A DNA stretch of 64,000 nt from a virus: the IMG/VR virus record IMGVR_UViG_3300025789_001072, positions 1 to 64,000 of that record; one strand, 5' to 3'. The notes under the pieces are model-generated. The model saw only the letters and a program-made list of their open reading frames with translations. It ran no database searches and was not told the origin of the DNA. How positions within the stretch are numbered: the first letter of the stretch is position 1; the number at the start of each line of letters is the position of its first letter. Positions 32,173 through 60,488 of the stretch are shown piece after piece. Made by a program: the position numbers and the translations under genes.

Positions 32173-32553
32173 TTACAATTCAAATATATCACGCAGTGCT
32201 GCTTCTGTCAACTCACTTGTGAGAAAAGTATGGTCGCACTTATATGATGGACTATCGCTTAAGCGACGTGGTGCCTTGTTATGCACAATACGAACGCTCA
32301 CATCATGCTGAACACGATCAACCGCATGTTGGTGGCTCTGATGCAGCACCATAGCAAGTGGTCTGGCAAATCTATAAATCTTAGAAAGACTTTCAGCACG
32401 GCTAACAACATAGGCGCTATATCCTACCGCATGTTGCTTATTATTGTATGGACTCTCAGCAATTATTTCGGCTTCACTTATGACTTTAACTTGCGGCAAC
32501 TTAGCCAACAATTCTACACAGTCATAATCTTCAACTAGAAATAATACTTTCAT
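32173..32553 (-). CDS. hypothetical protein
   Basis: 126-aa ORF filling the gap between two tRNAs. Confidence 0.6.
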   Translation of the reverse strand: MKVLFLVEDYDCVELLAKLPQVKVISEAEIIAESPYNNKQHAVGYSAYVVSRAESLSKIYRFARPLAMVLHQSHQHAVDRVQHDVSVRIVHNKAPRRLSDSPSYKCDHTFLTSELTEAALRDIFEL

Positions 32554-32664: not shown

Positions 32665-33359
32665 ATTATATTAAATATAGCATCTTTTCCCCATACTGTC
32701 AATTTATTTTTAAATTGTTTCCACTTGCAACGGTCAAGTTCTGTCTCATAACCCTTGACTTCAAGATAACCACCTAATTCTTCAACATAAAAATCAGGAG
32801 TATAATGACTCAATGTTCCTTTTAAATTGATATAAGGAAATCTTTCAGTATTTCTACGCCAATTCCATCCTTGTTTATCCATATATTTTGCGGAAATTAG
32901 TTCCCACGAGCCATCCAATAAAACTTCACCAGCAATAGGAGATACATATTTAATTTTTTTGCATCTTCCTGCTTTTGGCATCCATCCGTCTTCGTATCTT
33001 TTAATAATTATTTCACGGTGTCTATCTCTAAATTTTTGTTGTTTTTCTTCTGTTAAATTATTCCAAAATAATTTACCTAGATTTGCACTTCGCAACTTTT
33101 CTTTTTGAATTATTGCGCCTTGTTCACCAAATATTTCATTATATTTTTTTCCTTTAAGACTTGTGCCTTTTGAAGAACCTTTTGGGTGTCCATTTTTCCA
33201 ATAATTATTGCCTAATTCTTTTCTTAATTTTTTTATTTTAGAACGATTTAGTTCCTTCATTCCATTACAGGAACTAGTAGATTCACTACAACAATTTTTT
33301 CCATTTTTTAATTTATATTTTGCTTCTGTCCCACAACCATAATCACATAAGTTTGTCAT
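32628..33359 (-). mobile_element. free-standing homing-endonuclease-like gene (PD-(D/E)XK type) in the tRNA cluster
   Basis: YTPDFYV...YLEVKGY catalytic motif, Cys-rich N-terminus, basic linker, AT-rich; ORF reads into tRNA-Ser. Confidence 0.7.
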
Positions 33360-33481: not shown

Positions 33482-33528
33482 ACTTCTTATATTACTAATA
33501 TACTTATATTATTCAATTTTGTCAAGCA

Positions 33529-36178: not shown

Positions 36179-36311
36179 TGGTGCGCTCTACCAGAATCGA
36201 ACTGGTACGCCGAAGCGAGAGATTTTACGGCGGAGATTCTGGATTTGAACCATAATGGGCGTTTACCCTTTCTCCGAAGTCTCTTGTGTCTACCTATTCC
36301 ACCAAGAGCGC
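36179..36311 (-). tRNA. tRNA-Leu(UAA) interrupted by a 50-nt insert in the anticodon
   Basis: Perfect GCGCTCT/AGAGCGC acceptor plus ACCA, Leu-type D-arm GTGGAATAGGTAGACAC, AGAGA/TCTCT anticodon stem, CGC-TTCG-GCG variable arm, ACCAG-TTCGATT-CTGGT T-arm; deleting 36227-36276 restores loop CUUAAAA and an 83-nt tRNA. Confidence 0.88.
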
Positions 36312-36318
36312 ATTAGCC

Positions 36319-36606
36319 TTATTTTACACTTATACTATGTATGCTGTCAAGACGAAACGAACGCCATTCTTTAATATCGGTCACAAAAACTGCCAACGAT
36401 TTATCACTGACCTTGCGCTTTGGCATTTCAGTATCTTCGCTTTCTACGATAGGAGGCAACATCTCAGGATTAAGAGTGCAAGGCATCGTGCGTAGATCAC
36501 CATTGACTTTAGTAAAGGTTACTTCACAAATACCTTCATGCAACATACTACGCAGCATATCAATGCTTGGTTGAACATCCGCATTAAATTCAATATATGT
36601 TGGCAT
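36319..36606 (-). CDS. WYL_2/Sm-like SH3 beta-barrel protein
   Basis: VTFTKVNGDLRTMPCTL...EWRSFRLDSI. Confidence 0.75.
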   Translation of the reverse strand: MPTYIEFNADVQPSIDMLRSMLHEGICEVTFTKVNGDLRTMPCTLNPEMLPPIVESEDTEMPKRKVSDKSLAVFVTDIKEWRSFRLDSIHSISVK

Positions 36607-36700: not shown

Positions 36701-36711
36701 ATTGTTATAAT

Positions 36712-36936
36712 TTATACTGTTTTGTTTAACCTGTCAATAAAAAGTTTCTTCAACGCTTTCTCAAAACCTTCCGAATTTCCTTCAACACGAGCCAAGAACA
36801 ATTCGTAAACAAGTGGGTCATGACTTGGTGGTGTAAAAACAAGATTGCGTGATTTCATCTCTTCAATGAGTTCATCATCATCAAAATCACTGATATCATA
36901 TTCTACTTCTACTTCTGTGTAATGTGTTCGTGCCAT
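36712..36936 (-). CDS. hypothetical acidic protein
   Basis: 74-aa ORF. Confidence 0.6.
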   Translation of the reverse strand: MARTHYTEVEVEYDISDFDDDELIEEMKSRNLVFTPPSHDPLVYELFLARVEGNSEGFEKALKKLFIDRLNKTV

Positions 36937-52937: not shown

Positions 52938-53822
52938 TTAGGAAATCTTGAAGGAGATATATTCAACAATAGCGGTGGCAATATCTACGCCGCAATACTT
53001 CTCAAACCCTTCAAAACCAGGTGCGCTATTTGCTTCGCATACCTTGTAACCGTCATCGTCAAACAGCAAGTCAATACCAGCCACATCTAAACCAAGACAC
53101 TTAGCTGTTTCACGGCATAGCAAGTCCATCTCTGGTGTAACGGCAAATGGTTCGCCACTGCCGCCGCCTGTGATGTTGGCACGGAAATCACCTTCTGGAC
53201 CAATGCGTTTCATAGCACCAATGGTCTTGCCACCAATTACCCATACACGAAGGTCAGTGCCTGCTGCAGCATTAACGAACTCTTGCACAATCATTGTCTT
53301 CTTAACGCCAAGATTATCAACCAAGTCCATTAGATTTTCAAATAGTTCTTTGGTTTGGCAAAGATGAACGCCCTTGCCATGCGAACCTTGCAGCACCTTA
53401 ACAACACATGGAAATCCTATTTCTTGTTCAACCACTTTGCTCGAAACAGGAAACTTAACTAACATTGTCTTTGGTGTAGGGATATTGTTCTGTGCTAGGA
53501 TTTGATGTGCTAGAAGTTTATCTTTAACATTTGCAATAGCATCACTACTATTAATAGTAGGCACACTAAACTTTTCTAATTGACGCATAACAGCACTGCT
53601 AAAGTAATTTGTTCCACTTCCTGTGCGGGTTAGCACAATCTTAGGCATAGAGATGCTTGTGCCTTGATAGCGAATACTTTTTGAACGACTGCGATTAACA
53701 ATGATATCAAAGTCATCTGGATGCACAAGTTTGGTGTCAATGTTTTTAGCAGCAAATGCTGCTAGCAATCTGCCGTTCTCATAACTTTCACGATGCTGAC
53801 TTAGTATCCAAACTGTGCTCAT
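52938..53822 (-). CDS. rimK: RimK-family ATP-grasp ligase
   Basis: DKLLAHQIL, GSHGKGV, QEFV, DLRVWVIG, FRAN, CEANSAPGFEG. Confidence 0.85.
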   Translation of the reverse strand: MSTVWILSQHRESYENGRLLAAFAAKNIDTKLVHPDDFDIIVNRSRSKSIRYQGTSISMPKIVLTRTGSGTNYFSSAVMRQLEKFSVPTINSSDAIANVKDKLLAHQILAQNNIPTPKTMLVKFPVSSKVVEQEIGFPCVVKVLQGSHGKGVHLCQTKELFENLMDLVDNLGVKKTMIVQEFVNAAAGTDLRVWVIGGKTIGAMKRIGPEGDFRANITGGGSGEPFAVTPEMDLLCRETAKCLGLDVAGIDLLFDDDGYKVCEANSAPGFEGFEKYCGVDIATAIVEYISFKIS

Positions 53823-53826
53823 GCTA

Positions 53827-54840
53827 TTAGTTATCTATGGACTTAATAAGACTTAAATTTTCTACAAATGCAGCAGTGCAGCCGCTCCATGTATATTGCT
53901 TACTTGATTCATGCACAGTCTTACGATCACAGTTAAGTGCTTGTTCAACCGCCTTTTCTAAATCATCATCCATATAACCATTAACGCCATTAACAACTAC
54001 ATCGCTTGGTCCAGTAACAGGATAAGCAGCAATAGGAGTTCCACATGCCATTGCTTCTAACATTACAACACCAAATGTATCAGTCTTGCTTGGAAATACA
54101 AACACATCAGCACAAGCATAATATTCGGCTAGTTCCCTACCACTCTTATAACCAGCATAGTTGATATGTGGATATTTGCGTTTTAATTCTGGCAGATATG
54201 GACCGTCACCGACGAGTATCTTGGTGCCATCTATTTGTAGGGAACAGAAATCATCTAGCCCTTTTTCATAACTAGCACGACTAACACAAAGTATGATAGG
54301 TTTCTTGACACCAGTAGTTTCTCTGCGTTGTGGATTAAAAGTAACAGTATCAACACCACGGTTCCACACAGCAAGATGTTCAAATCCACGCTGTGTCAAT
54401 TCCCCCTTCATAGTTTCATTTGTAACTAGCACCTTAGTAGAGAACTTATGAAACATTTTTATAAACCAGTATCCCCAATCTACAGGAAATCCAAAGAACT
54501 TATTAAAATATTCTGGAAACTTTGTATGGTAGGATGTATTGTGTGGGATACTGCGCTTATCTACTTTACAATACCAACGAGCAGCAAACCCTAGCGGACC
54601 TTCTGTGGCAATGTGAATGGCATCGGGATTAAATGATTCAATCATTGGACCAACCTTCCAGATATTCCACGCTAGTCTAATTTCTTTATAGCCAGGTGCT
54701 GGCACGGTCTTAAACTGACTTGGTTCAATAACCTGAACCTCGTGTCCAAGTTTTCTTAGTTCTGCAACAGTATTGACAAGGGTAGTTACAACGCCATTTA
54801 CGCTTGGACTATATGTATCGGTGACTAGGGTGATCCGCAT
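53827..54840 (-). CDS. GT4 glycosyltransferase (Agt-like glycolipid synthase)
   Basis: TDTYSPSVNGVVTTL, HIATEGPLG, SYHTKFPEY, FPSKTDTFGVVMLEAMACG. Confidence 0.88.
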   Translation of the reverse strand: MRITLVTDTYSPSVNGVVTTLVNTVAELRKLGHEVQVIEPSQFKTVPAPGYKEIRLAWNIWKVGPMIESFNPDAIHIATEGPLGFAARWYCKVDKRSIPHNTSYHTKFPEYFNKFFGFPVDWGYWFIKMFHKFSTKVLVTNETMKGELTQRGFEHLAVWNRGVDTVTFNPQRRETTGVKKPIILCVSRASYEKGLDDFCSLQIDGTKILVGDGPYLPELKRKYPHINYAGYKSGRELAEYYACADVFVFPSKTDTFGVVMLEAMACGTPIAAYPVTGPSDVVVNGVNGYMDDDLEKAVEQALNCDRKTVHESSKQYTWSGCTAAFVENLSLIKSIDN

Positions 54841-55567
54841 GAGAGTATTTAATTATAATCCACTTGCCTTCATAGGTTTCAACAAGTGCTGTGCAACTCT
54901 CTACCCAATCACCACAGTTCATATACTTTACATCACCTATATCACGAATGTTCGCATGATGAATATGTCCGCATATAATACCATCGGCACCTTTGACTCT
55001 AGCAAATTTGGCTAGGTTTTCTTCAAAGTCGCCAATAAAATTTACTGCTTGCTTAACTTTATACTTTGCCCATGCGCTTAGACTCCAGTGTGGGAGTCTG
55101 AACCAATTTTGTAATTTATTAACAACCACATTAATGTTAATGAGAATATCATATGCCCAACTTCCTATATGTGCCAACCACTTCATATTCTTCATGACCA
55201 CATCAAACTGATCGCCATGCATGACTAGATATTTCTTTCCATCTAATCCGCTATGTGTGATTGTATCAGTCAGAATAATATTACCAAAATGATGGTCGCC
55301 AAAACTGCGTAAAAACTCATCATGATTGCCTGGCAAATAGGTAACAGTTGTTCCCTTACGAGCCATACGCATAATCTTTTGTATAACATCGTTATGTTCT
55401 TGTGGCCAGTAAAATGATTTGCTCATTGCCCAACCATCAATAATATCGCCTACAAGATAAAGACGCTCACATTCAAATGTTTTAATAAATTCAAGCAGAG
55501 CCTGTGGCTGACTCATTTTTGTGCCTAGATGCACATCGCTTATGAATACACTTCGATAATAATTCAT
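54809..55567 (-). CDS. metallophosphoesterase, LpxH2/PlcP-like
   Basis: SDVHLG, GDIIDGW, GNHD, HGDQFD, GHIH, NCGDWVESCTA. Confidence 0.88.
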   Translation of the reverse strand: MNYYRSVFISDVHLGTKMSQPQALLEFIKTFECERLYLVGDIIDGWAMSKSFYWPQEHNDVIQKIMRMARKGTTVTYLPGNHDEFLRSFGDHHFGNIILTDTITHSGLDGKKYLVMHGDQFDVVMKNMKWLAHIGSWAYDILININVVVNKLQNWFRLPHWSLSAWAKYKVKQAVNFIGDFEENLAKFARVKGADGIICGHIHHANIRDIGDVKYMNCGDWVESCTALVETYEGKWIIIKYSHADHPSHRYI

Positions 55568-55592: not shown

Positions 55593-56195
55593 TTAGTTAT
55601 TTGGGTAGTTTATTAATTCTTTGTATTCAATCCAATGATGTTTATCTAGATTAATATTTAATTTGTTAAGATTTTCATTCAGATAATTCCAATCAGACAA
55701 AGATTGCTCAACATCAATGTGAATGAAATAATCTTTATTCTTTAATTGTTCTTCAATACTTGATTTACAAATTTTCATAAATTGATCTAATTTATGTGTT
55801 TGTTCATTTTTAATGATGCAGTTTTCTGCAACTTGTTTATAATTTTTGCTATAAAGATGTATCTTGATTTGATCTTTTTCAACTAAATCTTTGTGCACGA
55901 AATTTTTAATATTCTTGAAATATTCATAATGAGTTGATATAACAGTATTCAAGTTATTATCTATAATATTTTTATAATTTTTGTTGATTAAGATATTATC
56001 ATTTTCAACACGAGTTCTAAAAGGCATCGGTTCATTGCACCACTGTGGTCCAATAAATTTTACTTTATTACCAAATTTTTTATGTATTTTCCATTCATTT
56101 ATGCCATCTGCGGAAAAAACGTTATTTGATTTTTCTAAAAGATTACAAAAACCATCTCCGCCAACACCTGCAAAGAAAAATATCCAATATTGCAT
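55593..56195 (-). CDS. hypothetical protein, AT-rich (possible P-loop/sulfotransferase-like)
   Basis: N-terminal AGVGGDGF loop. Confidence 0.55.
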   Translation of the reverse strand: MQYWIFFFAGVGGDGFCNLLEKSNNVFSADGINEWKIHKKFGNKVKFIGPQWCNEPMPFRTRVENDNILINKNYKNIIDNNLNTVISTHYEYFKNIKNFVHKDLVEKDQIKIHLYSKNYKQVAENCIIKNEQTHKLDQFMKICKSSIEEQLKNKDYFIHIDVEQSLSDWNYLNENLNKLNINLDKHHWIEYKELINYPNN

Positions 56196-56215
56196 TTAAT
56201 TATTTAATTTAGAAA

Positions 56216-56349
56216 AGGTGCGGGTAGGATTTATACCTACAATTTGATGGTATTCACAGGCTACAGGTTTAACAGACCCTTGCTTTCTAGTTTTCAATAT
56301 TTCCATCATGCCGATACTCGATTACGTGTCCTGCCCACGCCGCCACACC
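56216..56349 (-). ncRNA. tRNA-like non-coding RNA with an expanded central region
   Basis: GGTGTGG/CCGCACC acceptor-like stem, GCGTG/CACGT D-like arm, GTAGG-TATAAAT-CCTAC T-like arm, extra TGATGG/CCATCA arm; GC-rich intergenic. Confidence 0.7.
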
Positions 56350-56359
56350 CGTATTCTAA

Positions 56360-56593
56360 TTAACCTTGACTAACAAAGTCATTTAGAATCTTAGCCTTTT
56401 CAACAATCTGTTCCATAGTATAGATTGGTGGAAGGTCTGGAGTAGTAGGAACAGGTTTATGTCCTTCATGTGCCAATGAAACTTGATTGCTCCAATCAGT
56501 GCGGATCATATCACATTTTGTATGGTATTCTGTATTAAGTGCGTCTTGTGCCATCTTTAACAATTCAAGACGAAGCATATATGGATTTGACAT
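56360..56593 (-). CDS. hypothetical protein (LRLELLKMA family)
   Basis: Strong SD AAGGAG, TAAATA upstream. Confidence 0.7.
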   Translation of the reverse strand: MSNPYMLRLELLKMAQDALNTEYHTKCDMIRTDWSNQVSLAHEGHKPVPTTPDLPPIYTMEQIVEKAKILNDFVSQG

Positions 56594-57392: not shown

Positions 57393-57920
57393 TTAATGTT
57401 TTGTGTAACTGTATCCAGAACAAGGCGGCGTTAAACATTGGATACTCATGCTGCCGCTATCTGGCACCGTAGGGCTATCTTGTAACACTTTTGCTGTAAT
57501 ACCACTGCCACTCAAATTAAGAACAAAACTTTTATCAGCATCACCAGACTGATGAATAGCAGCGCCGTTATTGCTATTGGAAGTAGTGCCATCAAGATTA
57601 ATAGCAGCAGTATGATTTCCACTACCGCTTTGAACGATTGTGAGGGTGTTGTTGTTATTATTAGCAGCATTAGTATTAGTATTAATAGTTCCATCTTGGT
57701 TCATTCCTACGGGTGGCGTTCCAATGAATGCAGCGTGATTGCCACTGCCATTCTGTATTATAGTTAGGTTGTTGTCATCGCCTTGATTCAAAATAGTAGC
57801 CTGTGGCGCACCACTACTAACCTGTTCTACGAATATGTTATTGCTATCACCTACTTGGTCTATATAAACACTGCCAGCCGCAGCAGGCGTAATCCATAGT
57901 AAGAATAATAAACGCTTCAT
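57393..57920 (-). CDS. curlin-repeat protein (CsgB-like)
   Basis: Signal peptide; repeats such as YIDQVGDSNN, ILNQGDDNN, IIQNGSGNH, IVQSGSGNH. Confidence 0.75.
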   Translation of the reverse strand: MKRLLFLLWITPAAAGSVYIDQVGDSNNIFVEQVSSGAPQATILNQGDDNNLTIIQNGSGNHAAFIGTPPVGMNQDGTINTNTNAANNNNNTLTIVQSGSGNHTAAINLDGTTSNSNNGAAIHQSGDADKSFVLNLSGSGITAKVLQDSPTVPDSGSMSIQCLTPPCSGYSYTKH

Positions 57921-57921
57921 A

Positions 57922-59034
57922 TTAGTTTCCCTGTGTTATTGTAATAACGCTACCGCCAGGATGTTGAACATTTTGTGTCATTGAAGTTCCTTCTTGATTT
58001 AAGATAAGTGTAGTTGGGCTATCCTTATCCACTGTCAATTGACTATAACTATTACCACCTTGACGATACAGTGTAAGGTTAGTATCTATCTTGACATACT
58101 TTAATCCTGCTTGTTTATTTGCGGCATATTGTGGCAGCATTTGATTTTCACCGCCTAACATACTTGCCAATAGTGAAGCATTAGCGAGGTCTAACATATT
58201 AGCCAAGAACTCTACATCAAGATTATTGATACTTAACTTGTTAAATGCTGTTAGATAATCCATGTTTAATTCATCAAACTTTAAGAAATCTTTATCAAGA
58301 AAATTAATATCAAGTGCTGTTTTCTGAACATGCTGTTCTTCTTCTACTTTCTTTGGTGGTTGAAGAATAAGCATATTGTTGATTTGTTCTGGACTTAGGG
58401 CAAGTATAACAGGTTTGGTTGGGTTTTGCTCTTTAGCACTTGTAGATGTTGCCTGAAACGGCTTGTCAAGATGTACAGTTCCCATATCAGTTGTTACATC
58501 AATCTTACCAGTGATACAATCTTTATCAATGTTCTTGTAACCTACTGGACAACTTGGCAGCAGTACAATAAGACTGCGACCTAACTCATCAACAGTCATA
58601 CTAAAATCAGTTCCACGCACACCGATTGTAGCAGTAGGAGTTTCAATCTTTACACTTTGTGGATTATCTTTGGCAATCTGACCACTGGCATAGCGAGCAG
58701 TGCCGATAGCAACTTTTAATCCTAACTTTCCAGCATCACCGTGAGCAGGATCATAAACAAAATCATCGATAACAAGTTTACTTTGCTCCGTTATTTCAAC
58801 TTTGGTATCATCTTCAAATGTAATACCAACTCGTGCTTTAGCAGTAACAACGGCATCGTTCATTTCGACGCCGCTGTTTACATTGCTCGGTATGCTCTGA
58901 CTTGACCGTTGTATTTCCGTCGGCCCTGTTTGTTCAGTCACAGTTCCGATTGCAGCATTAGTTACCGCTGGTAACAGAAATACTGTTATTAGAACCAGTA
59001 CTCTTAATATTGACTGTGCTATCAGTTGTGCCAC
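57922..59034 (-). CDS. FecR-domain exported protein
   Basis: ITFEDDTKVEITEQSKLVID, ETPTATIGVRGTDF. Confidence 0.85.
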   Translation of the reverse strand: MAQLIAQSILRVLVLITVFLLPAVTNAAIGTVTEQTGPTEIQRSSQSIPSNVNSGVEMNDAVVTAKARVGITFEDDTKVEITEQSKLVIDDFVYDPAHGDAGKLGLKVAIGTARYASGQIAKDNPQSVKIETPTATIGVRGTDFSMTVDELGRSLIVLLPSCPVGYKNIDKDCITGKIDVTTDMGTVHLDKPFQATSTSAKEQNPTKPVILALSPEQINNMLILQPPKKVEEEQHVQKTALDINFLDKDFLKFDELNMDYLTAFNKLSINNLDVEFLANMLDLANASLLASMLGGENQMLPQYAANKQAGLKYVKIDTNLTLYRQGGNSYSQLTVDKDSPTTLILNQEGTSMTQNVQHPGGSVITITQGN

Positions 59035-59644
59035 TTTGAGTCACCGCCACGTTATTACTCGCACCAGTTACTTCAACCTTTGACACAAAGCCATTAGCAC
59101 CCGCTGGTCCGTTCTGACTTATATTTACCACGTTTGTATCGCCAGTTTCTTTGACATCAACGCCAGCACCCATTAGGTTTGTAGTGCTGCTGCTAATAGT
59201 AGTGTTGTTTGTGCTACCAGAAACTACTGCACTAACTGTGCTTTTAGAACCAGCGGTGATACTTGTGTTGTTTGTATTACCTGTAACATTGGCAGTAATA
59301 GCAGTATCATTACAACTGCTACTTGGTGCAGCACCACACGCAACCGTAGTATTATTGTTATCACCAGTTACAACGCTGTTAATAACGCTGTTAGCACCCT
59401 GTACATTTACTTTATTAGTATTGCCACTACCGACTTGTGAAATGCTTACGGTTTGTCCATTTCCATGAAGAGTAGTTGCGGTCGTGTCATTTCCAATCTC
59501 GTTGTTGGAACCTTGTTGATTGAGCGTGATCGTGCTTCCACTGCCCACTTGGTCGATATAAACGTTGTTTATCGTACCAGCAAAACTTTGACTCGCTAGC
59601 ATTATAACTGCAAATCCTATTGCAGATTTAATAATGTTTTTCAA
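58958..59644 (-). CDS. curlin-repeat protein (CsgA-like)
   Basis: Signal peptide, about nine x-Q-x-G-x-x-N repeats; TTG start with SD AGGAG. Confidence 0.78.
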   Translation of the reverse strand: MKNIIKSAIGFAVIMLASQSFAGTINNVYIDQVGSGSTITLNQQGSNNEIGNDTTATTLHGNGQTVSISQVGSGNTNKVNVQGANSVINSVVTGDNNNTTVACGAAPSSSCNDTAITANVTGNTNNTSITAGSKSTVSAVVSGSTNNTTISSSTTNLMGAGVDVKETGDTNVVNISQNGPAGANGFVSKVEVTGASNNVAVTQSGTTDSTVNIKSTGSNNSISVTSGN

Positions 59645-59666
59645 ATGCCTACTCCTTTAAGGAGTT

Positions 59667-60488
59667 TTACGACGCCTTCTTTTTAGTAGTCGCATAACCC
59701 CATAGATTTTTTTGTGCACCCTGTTTAATCATATCCACAACGGCTGCTTCTGTTGCCAGACGCACTGCGTATGTGGTGGGTTCGTTGACATTTGCACCAG
59801 CCTCGACTTGTAAACTCATCGTACTCTGATCTAGGAATGTGACTACTGTGCCACTTCCACCTGTGCTTAAGATTGTTTTGGTAGCGCCAGCAGAAATTAA
59901 AACCTCACCTGTATGAACGCTGATCAATCTCACAATCACAGTAACCTCGTCGGTTCTATATTGTTGATTTACGCCTATTCCTAACATGGCAGCGCCATTG
60001 CCACCACTTTGTACATTGGTATCATAACCTACGATACCACCTTCAACCATAACACCAGCAATAAGCATTGGTGATAATGGCTTGGCATCTTTTCCTTCAT
60101 AGGTTTCACGTTGGTTGCGAATTAATTGACGCTCTTTAATAAGATCATCTAAACCAACACGTTCTACAACTTGAAACCATTTTCCCTTACCTGCGTCTTG
60201 TAGTGCCTTGATAAGAAATACTTCACCACCCTGTGTTACAGCACTACTTAGCACTGAAAACTTATCATTTTCCTTGCGTTGACCAGTTTTATCACCAAAG
60301 CCATACATTGCAATAGTAATTGGTTGTCCATCTGGCGGTGGCATATTTGCCAACTCATTATAATAACTTTTAGTAACTTTCTGCGGCATGTCGCTTGCAG
60401 CAGTTGGAACTCTTGCTTCATATGGCTGAACAGTGCTACATGCTGCCAGCAACGTGGTTATAATCATTGATACGATAAATTTATACAT
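59667..60488 (-). CDS. csgG: curli secretion channel lipoprotein CsgG
   Basis: Lipobox LLAAC, DKTGQRK, SSAVTQG, WFQVVER.GL..L.KERQLIR, EGGIVGYD. Confidence 0.93.
   Translation of the reverse strand: MYKFIVSMIITTLLAACSTVQPYEARVPTAASDMPQKVTKSYYNELANMPPPDGQPITIAMYGFGDKTGQRKENDKFSVLSSAVTQGGEVFLIKALQDAGKGKWFQVVERVGLDDLIKERQLIRNQRETYEGKDAKPLSPMLIAGVMVEGGIVGYDTNVQSGGNGAAMLGIGVNQQYRTDEVTVIVRLISVHTGEVLISAGATKTILSTGGSGTVVTFLDQSTMSLQVEAGANVNEPTTYAVRLATEAAVVDMIKQGAQKNLWGYATTKKKAS

Follow-up and report, generated by a model that had tools for sequence, protein, structure and literature searches.

A conserved tRNA-shaped element, probably non-decoding, in uncultured freshwater jumbo phages

We describe a conserved, transfer RNA (tRNA)-shaped element of 133 nucleotides (nt) in the first 64 kilobases (kb) of a virus genome record from IMG/VR (IMGVR_UViG_3300025789_001072, positions 1 to 64,000; this whole stretch is hereafter termed the window). 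With an estimated completeness of 37%, the full record of 130.7 kb implies a jumbo phage. The element lies on the minus strand, which carries nearly all genes of the window and every tRNA gene, and it represents a family of 10 distinct tRNA-shaped copies and one divergent copy, spread over about 18 other phage or metagenome records. The copies are conserved, lie on a definable strand, keep a tRNA-like geometry and are independent of their neighbouring genes. Comparisons among them indicate strong sequence constraint on the acceptor-, D- and T-like parts and a middle that is variable and mosaic, and one lineage carries predicted expression signals of the type found at tRNA genes. We consider it moderately probable that the element is a genuine tRNA-derived or tRNA-shaped, non-decoding small RNA gene that acts through tRNA mimicry.

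Architecture, conservation and mobility of the element

The element occupies a 163-nt gap between a 77-amino-acid (aa) open reading frame (ORF) and a 200-aa ORF (55593-56195, minus strand). Its parts, from 5' to 3' on the minus strand and preceded by the upstream ORF, are as follows.

56360-56593, minus strand: 77-aa ORF without known family, upstream of the element; often linked to the RNA, separable from it
56217-56349, minus strand: whole tRNA-shaped element, 133 nt between the ends of the closing stem (sequence and fold; match to covariance model R1, described below, at 56212-56354, 148.5 bits)
56343-56349, minus strand: acceptor-like closing stem, 5' strand GGUGUGG; pairs with 56217-56223 over 7 base pairs (bp), including one G.U
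56324-56340, minus strand: D-like arm, 5-bp stem and 7-nt loop GGCAGGA (fold and alignment)
56311-56321, minus strand: small hairpin UCGA-GUA-UCGG, called the anticodon arm in a preliminary description of this DNA (fold)
56245-56308, minus strand: long arm of 64 nt: UGAUGG/CCAUCA helix at its base, terminal hairpin at its tip, internal loops between (fold)
56287-56292, minus strand: AACUAG motif within the long arm, with AGC 2 nt later
56265-56279, minus strand: terminal hairpin of the long arm, GGGU-CUGUUAA-ACCU, with a 7-nt loop resembling an anticodon loop (fold)
56224-56240, minus strand: T-like arm GUAGG-UAUAAAU-CCUAC, with no spacer to the 3' strand of the acceptor-like stem (sequence and fold)
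56217-56223, minus strand: closing stem, 3' strand CCGCACC, with no CCA after it (sequence and fold)
56213-56216, minus strand: UUUU run immediately 3' of the closing stem (sequence)

Two unpaired nt separate the acceptor-like stem from the D-like arm, and a linker of 4 nt (4-5 nt across copies) separates the long arm from the T-like arm. The preliminary description had reported acceptor-, D- and T-like arms in tRNA order, a small GUA-tipped hairpin followed by an arm of about 64 nt closed by TGATGG/CCATCA, a non-canonical TATAAAT T-loop and the lack of an encoded CCA; all of these are present in the minus-strand sequence, and the coordinates agree with a start 10 nt past the 77-aa ORF's stop codon. 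Folded alone, the window-type small hairpin is marginal (-0.5 kcal/mol), and in the relative L177 it is lost.

Homologues were gathered through flanking proteins, exact DNA patterns in IMG/VR and one JGI metagenome pattern scan. The covariance model R1 was built from nine distinct tRNA-shaped sequences (window, L150, L155, L152, L151, L003, L010, L002 and L004); L177, the tenth, was found after R1 had been built, and L142 is the single divergent copy. Identical duplicates occur in other records (L153, L162, L156, L011, L013, L163, L157 and L178). Across the 36 sources searched, all 15 family matches, duplicates included, scored 127-165 bits with R1, and L177 scored 143.4 bits. Exactly one copy was found in the window's 130.7-kb contig, and one each in a complete relative of 338,435 bp with terminal repeats (G001) and in a 90-kb fragment (G003). 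The family is restricted to a single group of uncultured jumbo phages from fresh water, each genome carrying one copy, and the sequencing runs that contain the DNA are all recorded as freshwater metagenome or simply as "metagenome". Interrogation with a three-block pattern yielded 15 matches in metagenomes, nine real and six due to chance, and six matches in prokaryote genomes, all due to chance; none of 12 GC-rich chance loci from metagenomes and bacterial genomes matched R1 at E ≤ 1. The pattern GGTGYGGCGGCGTGG proved unspecific, with at least 120 matches in GC-rich phages, and was set aside. Searches of GenBank phages by blastn and tblastn with the region and the 234-aa ORF that commonly precedes the 77-aa ORF returned no match, and a 757-aa ORF showed only about 26% identity to a cyanophage protein, so that the phage appears to be without a close cultured relative. 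No further relatives were retrieved with the 79-aa homologue of the 77-aa ORF found beside L142, and the element is absent from L005-L007, which carry distant relatives of the 77-aa ORF (about 30-33% identity). Judged by Rfam 15 and the literature the family appears undescribed; it may be among the 10,006 structured-RNA predictions from IMG/VR, many of them tRNA-like candidates, presented in PMC10690425 (2023).

Alignment of the copies revealed near-invariant blocks at both ends of the element, formed by its first 26 nt and its last 29 nt, the latter extending from the linker through the T-like arm to the 3' end of the closing stem. This 3' block is identical at 29 of 29 positions in the pairs window-L003, L155-L003 and L003-L002; in the adjacent 77-aa gene, identity at third codon positions is 0.66, 0.58 and 0.58 for these pairs, respectively, and the four-fold sites are identical at 13 of 19, 13 of 23 and 11 of 19. 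Lower ungapped values for L152 and L004 result from 1-2-nt insertions or deletions (indels) in the T-loop. The T stem is identical in nine of the 10 tRNA-shaped copies and contains one G.U in L152, the D stem is invariant or differs only by G-C/G.U across the 10, and pair 1:72 is G-C in eight copies, A-U in L177 and A.C in L010. The middle part is mosaic and diverges much faster than the ends: L002 encodes a 77-aa protein 99% identical to that of the window, yet its element has a middle part of the L004 type. Embedded in this variable region, AACUAG-NN-AGC is invariant in all 11 distinct sequences, L142 included. Indels among the copies are 1, 2 or 4 nt long in the alignment, which argues that the stretch is not coding, and small-ORF or tmRNA (transfer-messenger RNA)-tag readings of the middle part, considered separately, are not conserved among copies. 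Taken together, the R1 scores, the alignment and the indels support the preliminary reading in that the element is conserved and non-coding and has its arms in tRNA order with tRNA-like junction spacings.

Pairing was assessed on a model-fitted alignment of the 10 tRNA-shaped copies, containing 32 pairs. Standard pairs fill 95.2% of cells, compared with 33-48% when partners are slid, a control biased toward a structure derived from the same sequences. G.U pairs occupy 24 of 310 cells and would be A.C mismatches on the opposite strand, which identifies the minus strand as the transcribed one. Minimum free energy (MFE) folds of individual sequences gave the same five-helix layout in eight of 10 copies, L151 and L003 deviating in the long arm (L177 was not folded whole); the fold of L142 is entirely different. 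Helices of the middle part recur with different sequences: stems of the small hairpin are UCGA/UCGG, CCCU/AGGG, CCCU/GGGG or, with a GAAA loop, CCU/GGG; the base of the long arm is GAUGG/CCAUC or AAUGG/CCAUU; and stems of the terminal hairpin are GGGU/ACCU, GGGU/AUCU (L177), AGGG/CCCU (L010), GGG/CCC or UCG/CGA (L142).

The divergent copy L142 follows the 79-aa homologue mentioned above. It keeps the closing-stem sequence, extended to 11 bp and followed by UUUUAUUAUU, and retains an AACUAG-AU-AGCG core together with the layout of the terminal hairpin. Its score with R1 is 13.5 bits; aligned with that of L010, its interior gave z = 3.5, a score reached by one of 300 shuffles.

The element moves independently of its neighbouring genes. 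The usual order is 234-aa ORF, 77-aa ORF, RNA, optional cargo, metallophosphoesterase, GT4 and RimK. In L010 the RNA directly follows the 234-aa ORF, with no 77-aa ORF, and in L177 it lies between a GT4 glycosyltransferase gene and a 625-aa ORF, not beside a 77-aa ORF. In L133-L136 and L143, where the 234-aa ORF is 96-99% identical, both the 77-aa ORF and the RNA are missing, and a short, plain AT-rich hairpin and a different gene stand in the place of the RNA; this absence indicates that the 77-aa ORF and the RNA form a presence/absence module.

Resemblance to tRNA and predicted expression

Canonical arm order and junction lengths were found in all 10 tRNA-shaped copies and are lacking in L142. 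Each of the 10 has an acceptor stem of 7-8 bp, then 2 nt, then a 5-bp D stem, and a 5-bp T stem that abuts the acceptor 3' strand with no spacer; the D-loop contains GG, as in tRNA. The highest-scoring R1 matches outside the family are themselves true tRNAs, namely tRNA-Cys of L006 (19.9 bits) and of L007 (18.3 bits), and the best R1 match in the tRNA region of phage T4 is tRNA-Ser (19.8 bits).

Features needed for decoding are of a different character. An anticodon arm of 5 bp and 7 nt, with U33 and a purine at 37, was not found: the small hairpin consists of 3-4 bp under a loop that varies among copies and measures 3-7 nt, with GUA confined to window-type copies and AUAGA, GUGAU, AGAUAC, AUGAUAC or GAAA elsewhere. 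Because this loop differs among copies GUA is not an anticodon, and the earlier suggestion of a Tyr-like RNA, built in part on what is one of six different loops, falls away. The "giant variable arm" of the same description is present as an arm of about 64 nt; its naming is less secure, since it reads equally well as an elongated anticodon arm, separated from the T stem by the 4-5-nt linker and ending, for the window type, in a CUGUUAA loop of 7 nt. The T-loop, UAUAAAU, is not canonical, the U-C of the consensus U-U-C being absent, and CCA is encoded in all six true tRNAs of the window and absent from the element. The lack of a conserved anticodon loop, the non-canonical T-loop and the missing CCA together argue against decoding.

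Searches for known families agreed with this picture. A 351-nt Rfam 15 search of 56100-56450 at E ≤ 10 returned only a meaningless match to a long non-coding RNA on the opposite strand, and no match occurred at the element in relatives; that no described Rfam family matches at this threshold counts in favour of the preliminary reading. ARAGORN at default settings called five tRNAs in the window and Rfam at gathering score found six, the element being among neither. The element did not reach the gathering threshold of the tRNA family RF00005 (29 bits), gave no RF00005 match at E ≤ 10, and was not among 21 RF00005 hits in the complete relative G001 (19 above the cut-off). Default ARAGORN called no tRNA in any of 10 copies; at an 80% threshold with introns allowed it proposed six different anticodons and made no call in two copies. 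In tmRNA mode at the 80% threshold it found none in 10 of 10 copies (L177 lying outside this set), Rfam gave no tmRNA match, and the third acceptor pair is U-A, not G.U.

A promoter-like motif, TTGACA-N16-18-TAWAWW, occurs 13 times in the window compared with 1.32 expected (about ten-fold enrichment, reached by none of 100 shuffles), with 12 of the 13 sites on the minus strand. It is found 8-15 nt upstream of five of the six window tRNA genes, and its position directly before these five single genes suggests that each has its own promoter. Example sites from the motif scan are listed below.

32183-32211, minus strand: TTGACA-N16-18-TAWAWW
32674-32702, minus strand: TTGACA-N16-18-TAWAWW
33497-33525, minus strand: TTGACA-N16-18-TAWAWW
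36321-36350, minus strand: TTGACA-N16-18-TAWAWW
36709-36737, minus strand: TTGACA-N16-18-TAWAWW

In L177 (identical to L178), the sequence type of the complete 338-kb relative, TTGACA-17 nt-TATAAA has its end 6 nt upstream of the closing stem, so that transcription is predicted to start at the stem's first base. This is one of two matches to the motif in 10.6 kb (0.23 expected), its TATAAA hexamer is the same as at the tRNA-Met of the window, and a run of six U follows the closing stem. No TTGACA-N16-18-TAWAWW site precedes the element in the window, where the element would accordingly be co-transcribed with upstream genes or rely on a weak site of chance-level quality. A candidate of the latter kind, the sigma-70-like ATGACT-18-TAGAAT 3 nt before the window element (9/12), was rejected, such sites numbering 10 compared with 12.2 in shuffles; likewise, the TATAAAT of the T-loop is not enriched as a T4-late-type promoter (22 compared with 29.9 expected), and the missing Shine-Dalgarno sequence of the downstream gene is uninformative, only 51 of 173 crude ORFs having one. 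Downstream, a run of at least four U occurs within 12 nt of the long-range closing stem in six of the 11 distinct copies, and a terminator scan listed nothing at the element.

Explanations for the conserved tRNA shape

As a non-decoding mimic, the RNA would be co-transcribed with upstream genes wherever it lacks its own promoter, the window being an example, and would be excised from that transcript by tRNA-processing enzymes of the host: RNase P would generate the 5' end, and trimming the 3' end. The product, about 133 nt in length, would be stable and unable to decode, and would most likely present its tRNA-like "top half" of acceptor and T-arm to a factor that recognizes tRNA, with any specificity carried by the long arm that differs among alleles.

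Several observations weigh against this explanation. The predicted fold is no stabler than that of shuffled sequence (MFE -33.9 kcal/mol, shuffle mean -32.06, z = -0.56; 63 of 200 shuffles as stable or more), so that the element stands out from chance because it is conserved and not because of its folding energy. The covariation in homologues that the preliminary description looked to is essentially absent: both sides change in one of the 32 pairs (none before L177 was added), and 355 of 500 shuffles did at least as well on both-side changes and 98 of 500 on covariation score. What is conserved in the acceptor-, D- and T-like stems is the sequence, and RNA structure alone does not require this; the helix-keeping changes in the small hairpin, long-arm base and terminal hairpin were recognized by eye and in local folds, outside any statistical test. 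RF00005 is blind to the element. L142 has no T-like arm and has a different, longer hairpin at the place of the D-like arm, so that the tRNA shape is typical of the family and not universal; compared with four other copies, its interior gave only z = 1.0-2.0. A promoter of its own is found in a single sequence type, L177, and a stricter promoter scan omits even this site because TATAAA lacks the final T. The U run is missing in five of 11 copies, and among sequencing runs containing the stretch none is recorded as RNA.

A more specific form of tRNA mimicry, which we regard as rather improbable, would combine the constant tRNA-like handle, formed by the acceptor, D and T parts, with the exchangeable arm and its several alleles. 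The RNA would serve as decoy or sponge for a tRNA-targeting or tRNA-sensing factor of the host, for example an anticodon nuclease or some other defence directed at tRNA, and the mosaic turnover of the arm would reflect an arms race. A decoy and an RNase P processing signal were the candidate roles put forward in the preliminary description. Terminal loops of the long arm resemble anticodon loops in their U-NNN-AA pattern (CUGUUAA, UGAUAA and UUCCAA). Phage tRNAs that rescue translation from anticodon nucleases are described in PMC11455837, and this documented resistance makes the decoy idea worth testing.

The main rival, unlikely in our view and nonetheless the most serious, holds that the stretch is a cis-acting 3'-end element of the upstream mRNA, serving as terminator, stabiliser or punctuation and having no function in trans. 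It would account for the location in nine of 11 sequence types, on the strand of the 77-aa or 234-aa ORF and immediately after its stop codon, for the plain hairpin that occupies this spot in L133-L136 and L143, for the run of at least four U after the closing stem where it occurs, and for the lack of a promoter motif ahead of the element in the window; t-elements, according to PMC1920247, help form mRNA 5' and 3' ends. The invariant blocks of 26-29 nt and the AACUAG core, however, far exceed what a terminator needs, and neither the five copies without a U run nor the silence of the terminator scan fits this role. The copy in L177, moreover, stands among different neighbours behind a tRNA-type promoter of its own.

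Three further explanations are weaker than this rival. A 5' leader, that is, an attenuator or riboswitch controlling the downstream gene, would suit L177, in which promoter, element and U run precede the 625-aa ORF by about 115 nt, and a same-strand gene lies 20-70 nt downstream in most copies; we nevertheless hold it very unlikely, as the downstream gene varies (the 200-aa ORF in the window, a metallophosphoesterase in L003 and L004, a 239-aa ORF in L010, a membrane-like ORF in L142 and the 625-aa ORF in L177), the next gene in L002 is an opposite-strand 65-aa ORF followed by RimK, and the closing stem itself abuts the U run, so that no alternative anti-terminator pairing is apparent. Equally improbable is a DNA-level recombination linker, kept for module exchange and not for RNA: the site is a hot spot of gene-content change and the element is mosaic, as L002 illustrates with its window-like 77-aa protein and L004-type middle, but the G.U pairs are strand-asymmetric, helices persist despite altered sequence, both in the middle part and in L142, and promoter and U run stand in correct register in L177. 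Finally, a working but unusual decoding tRNA, such as a tRNA-Asn(GUU) with a large insertion or intron, is scarcely credible and was already disfavoured, for although relaxed ARAGORN (80%, introns) derives tRNA-Asn(gtt) from the CUGUUAA loop in four of 11 copies and the same phage has a 130-nt tRNA with a 53-nt anticodon-loop insert, the loop at the CUGUUAA position has 8-9 nt in other alleles, the relaxed calls are inconsistent and the default ones nil, and the T-loop, the missing CCA and the silence of RF00005 all speak against it.

Known tRNA-like RNAs and neighbouring features

The tRNA-like stable RNAs of phage T4 have been known since the 1970s, and to our knowledge the function of rnaC and rnaD is still unexplained. 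The T4 annotation lists both as small stable RNAs (rnaC, species 1, 139 nt; rnaD, species 2, 119 nt), which confirms the earlier statement that T4 encodes such molecules. The two are the closest analogue in kind: they are phage-encoded, of similar size, and lie on the same strand as the tRNA genes that surround them, and rnaC folds with its closing stem next to the T arm, long hairpins replacing the D and anticodon arms. The T-loop of rnaC is the canonical UUCGAAU, whereas that of the element is non-canonical, and a D-like arm is present in the element and lacking in rnaC. Both T4 RNAs belong to a tight tRNA cluster, whereas the element lies among scattered single tRNA genes. With filters off, R1 gave 5.4 bits (E = 1.6) in the T4 tRNA region at a position overlapping rnaC, and rnaD scored no better, indicating no homology. 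The element represents a second, putative family of phage tRNA-like stable RNA, unrelated to that of T4.

Compared with canonical tRNA (RF00005), and especially class II tRNA with its long variable arm, the element shares the arm order, the 7-bp acceptor, the 5-bp T stem without spacer, the 2-nt junction between acceptor and D arm, the GG of the D-loop and, in one relative, a tRNA-type promoter; it differs in having no conserved anticodon loop, a UAUAAAU T-loop, no CCA and an arm of about 64 nt. Plant mitochondrial t-elements and the MALAT1 mascRNA are tRNA-like structures that serve as processing signals. The window element, too, is tRNA-like in fold and is predicted to lie in a longer transcript where two genes meet, following the logic of punctuation through RNase P and RNase Z set out in PMC1920247 and PMC8457004. 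These examples are eucaryotic or organellar, whereas cleavage of the phage element is only predicted and one copy has its own promoter.

Non-decoding mimics of the acceptor/T-arm part of tRNA also include the bacterial Y RNA-like YrlA, a partner of Ro60/Rsr, and the tRNA-like domain of tmRNA; the comparison differs in that the element's own 5' and 3' ends form its acceptor stem. Rfam YrlA gave no match at the element. According to PMC7824862, a TROVE protein and a tRNA-like partner of it are found in certain jumbo phages. A search for TROVE (PF05731) found none in the window's contig (G000) or in the complete 338-kb relative G001, control genomes being matched; genes for a CCA-adding enzyme were likewise absent from both, and RtcB genes from the window's contig.

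The phages that host the family are very large and uncultured, and also carry about 20 tRNAs. A copy of the L177 type is a clean, self-contained gene, with promoter, RNA and U run, that could be expressed directly for study. The combination of a constant tRNA-like frame with a fast-changing arm is an unusual pattern that invites a look at tRNA-directed conflict between host and phage; if the element is only a processing or terminator structure, its interest is modest.

Beside the RNA lies an accessory module, identified by protein family matches, which is kept in relatives and rearranged with respect to the RNA.

52938-55567, minus strand: RimK-like ATP-grasp ligase, GT4 glycosyltransferase and calcineurin-like metallophosphoesterase

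Two further RNA features were encountered. At 36182-36311 (minus strand) lies a tRNA gene of 130 nt whose anticodon loop contains 53 inserted nt (Rfam tRNA, 40.9 bits). The gene is preceded by a TTGACA promoter and encodes CCA. It was missed by ARAGORN at default settings and, with introns allowed, called as tRNA-Arg(tcg) with a 50-nt intron; its D arm and 11-nt variable region look more like class II Leu(UAA). The insert holds a T-loop-like hairpin, UGG-UUCAAAU-CCA, and is far too short for a group I intron; this tRNA was not found in the relatives G001-G003. In L005 (3823-6065), L006 and L007, a cluster of six to seven tRNAs lies downstream of the distant relative of the 77-aa ORF. About 230 nt downstream of that relative in this group is a canonical GGUUCGAAUCC T arm with a 3' ACCA sequence, called by neither ARAGORN nor Rfam, and L005 also contains a permuted (two-piece) tmRNA (123.9 bits).

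The window further contains curli-like genes (57393-60488, minus strand). These comprise a curlin-repeat protein of 175 aa (57393-57920, minus strand), a FecR-domain protein (57922-59034, minus strand) and a CsgG-family protein (59667-60488; E = 5e-45).

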